Below are positions 9,418-9,999 of a stretch of DNA of 64,000 nucleotides, piece after piece. The position numbers and the translations under genes were made by a program. The notes beneath the pieces were generated by a model that did no database searches, was not told the origin of the DNA, and saw only the letters and a list, made by a program, of their open reading frames with translations. Within the stretch, counting starts at the first letter, position 1. Each line of letters opens with the position of its first letter. Source of the stretch: an uncultured Thermoleophilia bacterium (GTDB lineage Bacteria; Actinomycetota; Thermoleophilia; UBA2241); assembly GCA_963715985.1 (NCBI GenBank), contig CAVQSP010000013.1, forward strand, positions 32,001 through 96,000, given 5' to 3'.

Positions 9418-9999
9418 TCAGTAGGGCTGCGCCTGGCAGGAGCAGCTGTCGGACTGGCACGAGCAGGAGGACACGCTCTGGCACGTGCACTGCGCGTTGC
9501 ACGAGCATGTGCCCCCTCCGCCGCCTCCCCCTCCGGAGTCGGACACGCAGCTGCACGCGGCCACCGCCTCGCAGGTGCACACCTGGTTGCAGGAGCACAC
9601 CAGGTTGCACGTGCAGATCGTACCTCCGAAGGCGTCCTTGCCGGTGAGCCTGGTCTTGGTGGTGTGGGCACGCGTGACCTTGCCGGGCTTGTCCGTCTTC
9701 TTGGGGACCTTCTTGGGGCCGGACACCCTCTTGGAGGGGTCCTCGGGCGCGATGAACACGCCCGGCTCAGGGTACTGGTACTCGGGCTCCGGAGCGCTCC
9801 AGTGCAGGACCTCGGGCGAGGCGTCAGAGCTGGGCGTCGCGCTCGCCGACGAGCCCAGGAGGTCGTCGGGGGCGCTCTCGCCGCTGCGCAGGGCCGCCCA
9901 CTCCACGGGAGCGTCGCTCTCGTAGATGGCGAGCTTGGGCGGCTCGTACTCTTGCGGGGCGGCCGCGCTCAGACCGTCGCCGGGCTGCTCGTCGGACAC
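9418..9999 (-). CDS. Putative RiPP precursor, 193 aa, with eight C-[ST]-C repeats
   Basis: GGAGG RBS, GTG at 9999 inside the 3' end of the rSAM gene; YEPPKL leader motif; 16 Cys in the last 65 aa. Confidence 0.8.
   Translation of the reverse strand: MSDEQPGDGLSAAAPQEYEPPKLAIYESDAPVEWAALRSGESAPDDLLGSSASATPSSDASPEVLHWSAPEPEYQYPEPGVFIAPEDPSKRVSGPKKVPKKTDKPGKVTRAHTTKTRLTGKDAFGGTICTCNLVCSCNQVCTCEAVAACSCVSDSGGGGGGGGTCSCNAQCTCQSVSSCSCQSDSCSCQAQPY

Follow-up and report, generated by a model that had tools for sequence, protein, structure and literature searches.

We analyzed a 64,000-nucleotide stretch of DNA from an uncultured Thermoleophilia bacterium (GenBank assembly GCA_963715985.1, contig CAVQSP010000013.1, positions 32,001 to 96,000), hereafter the window, focusing on a minus-strand open reading frame (ORF) at 9418..9999 that an earlier note had read as a precursor with a YxxPxL leader motif and a duplicated C-[ST]-C core. 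Comparative sequence evidence supports, in outline, the reading of this ORF as a precursor that bears a conserved YxxPxL leader motif and is modified by a radical S-adenosylmethionine (SAM) enzyme; with near certainty, the radical SAM enzyme of the adjacent upstream gene takes the CxC-repeat tail as its substrate. Our full reading, which we favor with somewhat better than even confidence, is that the protein is the substrate of a four-gene cassette in which cysteine (Cys) side-chain thioethers would be formed, its leader would dock on a recognition element for peptides that are ribosomally synthesized and then modified post-translationally (RiPP recognition element, RRE), and the product would be located outside the cytoplasm together with a tetratricopeptide repeat (TPR) protein.

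A four-gene cassette with a radical SAM maturase

Four genes run head to tail on the minus strand, encoding a PqqD-like protein, a radical SAM/SPASM enzyme, the precursor and the TPR protein (Table 1). Judging from their abutting or overlapping ends and from their shared synteny, these genes form a translationally coupled unit that is inherited together. Eight close loci (L001–L008) were recovered when one genome for each species was scanned, in metagenome-assembled genomes labelled Thermoleophilia or Actinomycetota and, in one case, Dehalococcoidia; in all eight, the radical SAM gene was directly upstream and the TPR gene directly downstream of the precursor, and the PqqD-like gene was present wherever the contig extended. 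One radical SAM gene (L006:4570-5970) was split over three frames by tblastn and may reflect an assembly error or a decayed copy. We assigned 44 loci to the window type, which is marked by a D-[ASTE]-F-G junction (mostly DAFGG) ahead of the first CxC. Of these, all 24 with 2 kb or more of upstream sequence carried the radical SAM gene and likewise all 24 a PqqD-like gene, and in all 31 with a downstream flank of 1.2 kb or more, a TPR gene came directly after the precursor; the loci are mutually related and not independent. Maturase-free homologues were sought and none was found among the 24, in line with the tie to a maturase that the earlier note had drawn and that the PqqD-family and radical SAM/SPASM genes directly upstream bear out. 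The precursor gene is single-copy in its 4.35-Mb genome. Within its class it is patchy, being present in 4 of 300 other genomes, which without exception belong to the window's own family, as expected for an accessory cassette.

The maturase carries the CxxxCxxC motif and a complete seven-Cys SPASM motif, all invariant in alignments of 15 and 18 rows. Its best NCBIfam match was PapB (116 bits, cut-off 340), followed by nif11-rSAM, ScfB (97.8 bits, cut-off 425) and QhpD (84.9 bits, cut-off 453), and the closest sequence in the Protein Data Bank (PDB) was CteB (5wgg, 2.7e-21). The same structure was the top Foldseek match (E 1.6e-18, TMq 0.61, 487 columns) of an AlphaFold2 (AF2) model with a mean predicted local distance difference test (pLDDT) score of 83.6. 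In sequence and in predicted fold, the enzyme is nearest to the thioether-forming maturases CteB, PapB, ScfB and QhpD. Residues 1–70 of the model form strands followed by two helices, in a region conserved in all homologues, and we read these N-terminal ~70 residues of the model as an RRE-like domain.

The PqqD-like protein matched Pfam PqqD at 1.1e-9 (39 bits, cut-off 23.4); every NCBIfam PqqD model stayed below its cut-off, and NF033530 (lasso_PqqD) matched weakly. Its ORF is open up to a TTG at 11839, and the G+C content at third codon positions (GC3) fades above ~11700. The TPR protein has a hydrophobic segment (signal or anchor) at its N-terminus, followed by the TPR repeats, and three more hydrophobic segments towards its C-terminus. 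Between the TPR region and these last segments lies a run of 12 Gly, which echoes the Gly8 spacer of the precursor.

The precursor gene and its conserved core

The precursor gene is real and, as codon comparisons indicate, under purifying selection. In a window of 71% G+C, GC3 in the precursor frame reaches 0.93–0.94, and a GGAGG motif lies 5 nt ahead of the GTG at 9999. A search returned 47 homologues of 126–209 residues that matched over approximately the full length at 51–98% identity, and their N-termini (MSDDQ...) fit a start at GTG 9999 and not at TTG 10140. Codon differences from seven related loci pile up at the third position, for example 34/18/74 at positions 1/2/3 in L001. Given that both these differences and the conservation track the minus frame, we ruled out the plus-strand ORFs 9485-9925 and 9289-10233 as genes and consider them high-GC artefacts. 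A promoter and terminator scan of 7900-12100 found none and is uninformative at 71% GC. Approximately half of the sampled sequence words were present in 20 DNA runs coded as wetland, soil and sediment metagenomes, with no RNA run among the matches listed in that read search.

Translation placed the YEPPKL motif at residues 18–23 (9931-9948), where the earlier note had it, and the YPEPGV, FGG and Gly8 elements as well as the duplicated unit CSC-Nxx-CTC-[EQ]xVxx-CSC-xSDS were likewise all present in the protein. The unit occurs in both halves of the core, at residues 135–155 and 165–185, with 14 of 21 positions identical. All 16 Cys fall within eight CxC triplets (CTC, CSC, CTC, CSC, then CSC, CTC, CSC, CSC), and shuffling the 67-residue core 100,000 times gave eight or more CxC in 439 cases. 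The charge changes along the protein, from −15 over residues 1–90 to +9 over residues 91–126 and −3 over the core. AF2 with 52 sequences gave no fold (pLDDT 50; predicted template modeling score, pTM, 0.14), and the precursor is therefore predicted to be disordered, in which case the conservation of its first 126 residues would lie in linear motifs. No Pfam or NCBIfam model matched the precursor, and the ESM Atlas returned no usable match.

The CxC pattern was maintained in close homologues. In 48 of them, 758 of 769 tail Cys were within CxC; the middle residue was T or S in 353 of 379 triplets, the following residue was Q, N, V, E or D in 378 of 379, a V stood two positions beyond that residue in 225 cases, and triplets were spaced by 6 (146) or 8 (122) residues. 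Block 1 is the constant part, and it occurs in coupled variants, CTC-N-LV-CTC-N-Q-V and CTC-D-LV-CTC-N-L-V: in 21 rows, N132 was paired with Q139 in 11 of 11 and D132 with L139 in 9 of 10, a covariation that hints that residues 132 and 139 work together. Block 2 varies in copy number, with extra units in P0041 and five C-[AS]-C-V-S-D-T units in L047.

Table 1. Cassette genes, precursor elements and flanking genes in the window, with positions counted from its first nucleotide.
Feature	Position	Strand	Remarks
PqqD-family (RRE) protein	11342..11785	−	Tat-like N-terminus (TTRKTFIV, then a weakly hydrophobic stretch); inferred start ATG 11785
Radical SAM/SPASM maturase, 458 aa	9969..11345	−	GTG start overlaps PqqD stop (GTGA); Pfam Radical_SAM 2e-12
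Precursor gene, 193 aa	9418..9999	−	stop TGA 9418-9420; GTG start 9999, within the radical SAM gene, 31 nt from its end
Leader motif 1, YEPPKL, residues 18–23	9931..9948	−	family consensus Y-E-x-P-x-L-S-[IV]-Y-E
Leader motif 2, YPEPGVFIAP, residues 76–85	9745..9774	−	F82 and A84 invariant; aligns to leaders of distant relatives
YPEPGV, residues 76–81	9757-9774	−	
TGKDAFGG junction, residues 119–126	9622..9645	−	ahead of first CxC; D122, F124, G125 invariant
FGG, residues 124–126	9622-9630	−	
Core block 1, residues 127–155	9535..9621	−	TI-CTC-NLV-CSC-NQV-CTC-EAVAA-CSC-VSDS; all 8 Cys invariant in 52 rows
Gly8 spacer, residues 156–163	9511..9534	−	Gly runs also in distant relatives
Core block 2, residues 164–193	9421..9510	−	T-CSC-NAQ-CTC-QSVSS-CSC-QSDS-CSC-QAQPY; less constant across the family
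TPR protein, 419 aa	8157..9416	−	GTG start 1 nt past precursor stop; Pfam TPR_2 9.2e-22
ABC exporter	2752-5640	+	three N-terminal FHA domains, ABC_tran, ABC2_membrane; no C39 domain
Ser/Thr kinase with TIR domain	5739-8132	+	long Ala/Pro/Glu-rich region; C-terminal hydrophobic segment
508-aa protein, divergently transcribed	11888-13414	+	one N-terminal hydrophobic segment, read as secreted; InhA-like MAM 23.4 bits, below cut-off 26.9

A widespread family of hexad-tail proteins

Searches with the tail alone recovered 80 metagenome loci, and the 97 loci in total were sorted by precursor features. Besides the window type, we distinguished type B ('VPVH', 24 loci), comprising small proteins ending in C-[ST]-C-V-P-V-H, and type C ('HYWYPN', 24 loci), ending in HYW[YF]P[NT] or similar and including many WD40 proteins of 430–510 residues; five of the 97 loci fit none of the three types. 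The tail module was detected in Actinomycetota, Planctomycetota, Gammaproteobacteria, Bacteroidota, Acidobacteriota, Chloroflexota and other phyla, nearly always beside a radical SAM homologue. Such a homologue was found in 69 of the 80 metagenome loci, with most misses at contig ends, and, where at least 2 kb of upstream DNA was available, in 11 of 12 type B and 14 of 15 type C loci. None of the distant maturases exceeded a curated NCBIfam cut-off: nine matched below it, usually with PapB as the best match, while one more gave no hit at E 1e-20.

CxC triplets accounted for 244 of the 257 tail Cys of 17 distant proteins, with 6 as the commonest spacing. The tail is, on this sequence pattern, a hexad array with the unit C-[ST]-C-[N/D/Q/E/V]-x-V, and given that distant proteins share CxC tails with this spacing, the repeat is better described as a hexad of variable copy number than as the two-cassette design of the earlier note, even though the internal duplication itself was found as claimed.

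Eleven loci (L011, L014, L016, L017, L088, L089, L092–L095 and L097) encode proteins of 430–510 residues with a P-E-[VI]-Y-type N-terminal motif, a twin-arginine translocation (Tat) signal, WD40-like repeats and a hexad tail that often ends in HYW[YF]P[NT]; one to four radical SAM/SPASM paralogues adjoin these genes. The fused WD40 forms were found only by DNA-pattern scans, and a protein search with the core and longer proteins scored none of 46 candidates. In two type B loci (L077:7035-8405 and L062:2622-3974), a gene for a B12-binding radical SAM enzyme follows the TPR gene, which suggests a further modification step that is absent from the window.

No curated family matched the tail of the distant precursors. 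Literature searches found no description of the hexad-tail family, although supplements, such as those of PMC10288494, might list such precursors. Neither 'HYWYPN' nor 'YWYPN' occurred among the literature matches listed, those for CTCN and CSCN were unrelated uses, and searches combining SPASM, twin-arginine, WD40 and cysteine-rich found no relevant paper. The family is widespread and apparently undescribed, with no curated model naming it.

Proposed thioether chemistry of the tail

Given that the enzyme is nearest to thioether formers, that N, D, Q, E or V almost always follows CxC, and that [N/D]-x-V-C reproduces the NxxC topology, we infer, with moderate confidence, that the tail carries a ladder of side-chain thioether rings. 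The enzyme would abstract a side-chain hydrogen and bond a Cys sulfur to the Asn, Asp, Gln or Glu after each CxC, at the beta or gamma carbon of that residue; block 1 and block 2 would each come to carry a series of small thioether rings.

Several points weigh against this proposal. The scores of the enzyme lie far below each curated cut-off, placing it outside every characterised equivalog, so its reaction could differ, and the thioether chemistry is itself a prediction from sequence and analogy. The core has 16 Cys and only 7 N/E/Q acceptors after CxC, which implies that at least half of the Cys do something else: they could link to other acceptors, such as Val or the T/S inside CxC, form disulfides, bind metal or stay free. 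In addition, the precursor lacks a signal peptide, and neither a peptidase nor a dedicated exporter was identified among the cassette genes.

The excess of Cys over carboxamide or carboxylate acceptors would also fit metal binding, in which the CxC array would be a metallothionein-like or cluster-binding tail, with the radical SAM enzyme modifying few positions or with free Cys functioning after export. CxC is a classic metal-thiolate motif, and Tat, for which relatives carry signals, typically transports cofactor-loaded proteins. We nevertheless consider this explanation quite improbable, given that no metallothionein or other metal-binding family of Pfam or NCBIfam matched the precursor, that strict linkage to a radical SAM/SPASM gene is not expected of a plain metallothionein, and that the positions between the Cys are conserved as T/S, N/D/Q/E and V.

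It is likewise unlikely that the enzyme modifies the tail by another chemistry, be it sactionine formation (Cys sulfur to alpha carbon), C-C or C-O cross-links, or epimerisation, since the top-ranked families are all ranthipeptide/QhpD-type thioether formers and the near-universal N/D/Q/E after CxC fits known acceptor sets. This alternative draws on the fact that SPASM enzymes within one clade catalyse different reactions, on the title of the best PDB match, CteB, as a sactipeptide enzyme, and on weak matches to StsB (51.9 bits, cut-off 625), DynA, DarW and cyclophane formers. In the available text of PMC10288494, StsB is a sactisynthase that has a separate RRE protein, StsC, and acts on the CxCxC core of StsA, an arrangement that shares a CxC-containing core, a radical SAM/SPASM enzyme and a discrete RRE protein with the window cassette. 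In contrast to the window system, StsB groups with MftC-like enzymes and the Sts core is CxCxCx4GxGxG rather than a series of hexads.

The thioether ladder we favor has one of its closest counterparts, by description, in the streptococcal RaS-RiPP system NxxcA/NxxcB, where a radical SAM/SPASM enzyme acts on N-x-x-C. According to the available text of PMC9389541, NxxcB installs a beta-thioether onto the Asn of the NxxC motif and tolerates Gln, Asp and Ala; the Asn, Gln and Asp acceptors match the residue after CxC in the window precursor, which contains NLVC, NQVC and NAQC. Unlike NxxcA, the window precursor has two Cys per repeat, eight repeats and a 126-residue leader, and it is accompanied by a separate Tat-like PqqD protein and a TPR partner. 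No NxxcB model was among the NCBIfam matches listed for the window enzyme, so that the two are likened by description and not by sequence.

PapB/freyrasin and ScfB(CteB)/SCIFF share with the window system an N-terminal RRE-like domain, the radical SAM plus SPASM architecture and a substrate rich in Cys whose gene adjoins that of the enzyme. They differ in that the window enzyme reaches about a third or less of their cut-offs, its precursor has 193 residues conserved throughout, and the substrate motif is a CxC hexad instead of the CX3D or six-Cys-in-45 motifs. QhpD installs multiple Cys thioethers on the side chains of Asp/Glu, in a protein whose final location is outside the cytoplasm. It is, like the window enzyme, a radical SAM/SPASM protein, and the TIGR03906 match spans residues 45–404 of the latter. 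In contrast to QhpD/QhpC, the system of the gamma subunit of quinohemoprotein amine dehydrogenase, no dehydrogenase subunits are encoded nearby among the scanned proteins, the match falls well short of its cut-off, and the window substrate is repetitive and not a single folded small subunit. QhpD-type enzymes are grouped as 'QhpD-like ranthisynthases' in the available text of PMC10288494. Overall, the window system is outside all curated families and would work most like the ranthipeptide/QhpD thioether systems.

Leader recognition and the GG junction

The earlier note had equated YEPPKL with the RRE-binding YxxPxL motif of lasso-type leaders. The motif is indeed conserved, with Y18 in 48 of 52 alignment rows, P21 in 50 of 52 and L, I, V or M at position 23 in 50 of 52, followed by S-[IV]-Y-E, and a PqqD-family protein accompanies it as in lasso systems, where a PqqD-like B1 protein binds YxxPxL. 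The likeness in position did not hold: the window motif lies 104–109 residues before the core (−109 to −104), whereas the conserved lasso-leader motif is at −17 to −12 (available text of PMC10368454), and the scan of the cassette ORFs and six neighbours revealed neither a lasso cyclase nor a protease. Further conserved leader elements are PEVLxWSAPxPxYxYP, a Lys/Thr-rich stretch and TGxDAFGG.

Motif 2 (P79; F82 and A84, each in 52 of 52 rows; P85 in 51 of 52) is at least as conserved as YEPPKL, which weakens the case for YEPPKL as the RRE motif. Alignments to distant relatives cover motif 2 (query residues 72–176 to L009 and 77–173 to L010), and by our own reading it resembles the P-[EK]-[IV]-[YF]-x-[IV] at the N-termini of type B and C proteins. 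The cassette contains two RRE-like modules, the discrete PqqD-like protein and the N-terminal domain of the enzyme, and the motifs YExPxLS[IV]YE and P-x-V-F-V-A-P of the 126-residue leader could dock as strands on one or both of them. A co-fold of the PqqD domain (residues 62–165), the radical SAM enzyme and the full precursor gave ipSAE values of 0.30, 0.37 and 0.30 against a mark of 0.32, without controls and with no contacts given, and was used neither for nor against docking. The idea that the discrete PqqD-like protein is specific to the window type and pairs with YEPPKL was rejected, since type B loci, too, have a PqqD-like gene upstream of the radical SAM gene.

Of the GG directly before the core, G125 was shared by all 52 rows and G126 by 49 of them. 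This near-invariant DAFGG junction, the occurrence of GG-[TAS]-[ILV]-CTC ahead of the core in several of the distant small relatives (type B), and the internal duplication of the core would all fit a classical RiPP, in which cleavage after GG releases one or two small Cys-rich peptides, with the cassettes split at Gly8, for secretion. We regard this as distinctly unlikely. Neither C39 nor any other peptidase domain was found among the cassette proteins and the six neighbours scanned, and the adjacent ABC transporter is of the FHA type, in contrast to double-glycine systems with a C39-domain transporter. Moreover, conservation (51–98% identity) extends over the whole 193 residues, block 2 differs between relatives and gives way to Pro-rich sequence in L008, L055 and L057, and the same tails occur on the 430–510-residue WD40 proteins, for which release of a small peptide is not obvious. 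Cleavage after GG is thus possible but unsupported.

A possible Tat route for the precursor

The PqqD-like proteins offer a possible link to export. The window protein begins with T-T-R-K-T-F-I-V, no 19-residue segment of it reaches a Kyte-Doolittle value of 1.6, and it did not match TIGR01409. Using a TIGR01409 or PF10518 profile plus a twin-Arg motif as criteria for Tat signals, we found that two of the ten PqqD-like proteins scanned passed TIGR01409 (L056, 17.7 bits; L084, 21 bits; cut-off 16.7). Most PqqD-like ORFs, including those of L004, L008, L009, L010, L056, L058, L064, L072 and L084, carry [ST]R[RK]xFL and a short h-region, and in type B the motif is a clear twin-Arg signal. The genome encodes TatC (227.8 bits).

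Window-type and type B precursors have no plausible Tat signal of their own: the search flagged 3 of 68, which we read as artefacts of frames open upstream of the start. A PqqD-like protein was encoded in 35 of 36 of these loci with enough upstream DNA. Type C precursors, in contrast, had their own RRxFL in 15 of 24 cases, and a PqqD-like gene was detectable in only 4 of 15 type C loci, a count obtained with a PqqD hidden Markov model built from window-type and type B sequences that may miss divergent ones. The types compared here were defined by precursor features excluding Tat and PqqD. Complementarity is weakened by four type C loci that have both their own RRxFL and a PqqD-like ORF. This partly complementary pattern suggests that a Tat signal is supplied either in cis or, with the precursor as a hitchhiker, in trans by the RRE protein. 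We therefore raise, as a tentative and still doubtful proposal, that the PqqD-like RRE doubles as an export pilot that would bind the leader of the signal-less modified precursor in the cytoplasm and carry it through Tat to the TPR membrane protein. No paper that connects PqqD or RRE proteins to Tat turned up among the literature matches listed, judged by title in the case of PqqD. In the full reading proposed here, the product would then act outside the cytoplasm together with the TPR protein.

To our knowledge, the known substrates of radical SAM/SPASM thioether enzymes are short peptides with a handful of Cys, in a field that is active. The window substrate is, by contrast, a protein of 193 residues, conserved over its full length, with a hexad array of 16 Cys. 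If the export-pilot proposal is correct, the family would constitute a cross-phylum class of radical SAM-cross-linked, Tat-exported proteins rather than a classical small-peptide RiPP. The family is possibly a case of protein rather than peptide maturation by this enzyme class, and it would also offer a defined repeat-based substrate for the rules of thioether ring formation, as well as a testable link between RRE proteins and Tat export.

Genes flanking the cassette

The gene for the 508-residue protein with the InhA-like MAM match adjoins the cassette in L001, L002, L004, L005, L006 and L008. On the other side of the cassette, the kinase-TIR and FHA-ABC pair is syntenic with it in L001, L004 and L006. 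We considered these two genes as cassette members and set them apart as a separate module, because the synteny is limited to close relatives and because the pair resembles the kinase plus FHA-ABC pairing known from mycobacteria and other actinobacteria. The invariant Thr residues of the precursor (T102, T109, T114, T116 and T119) could be candidate targets of the neighbouring kinase.

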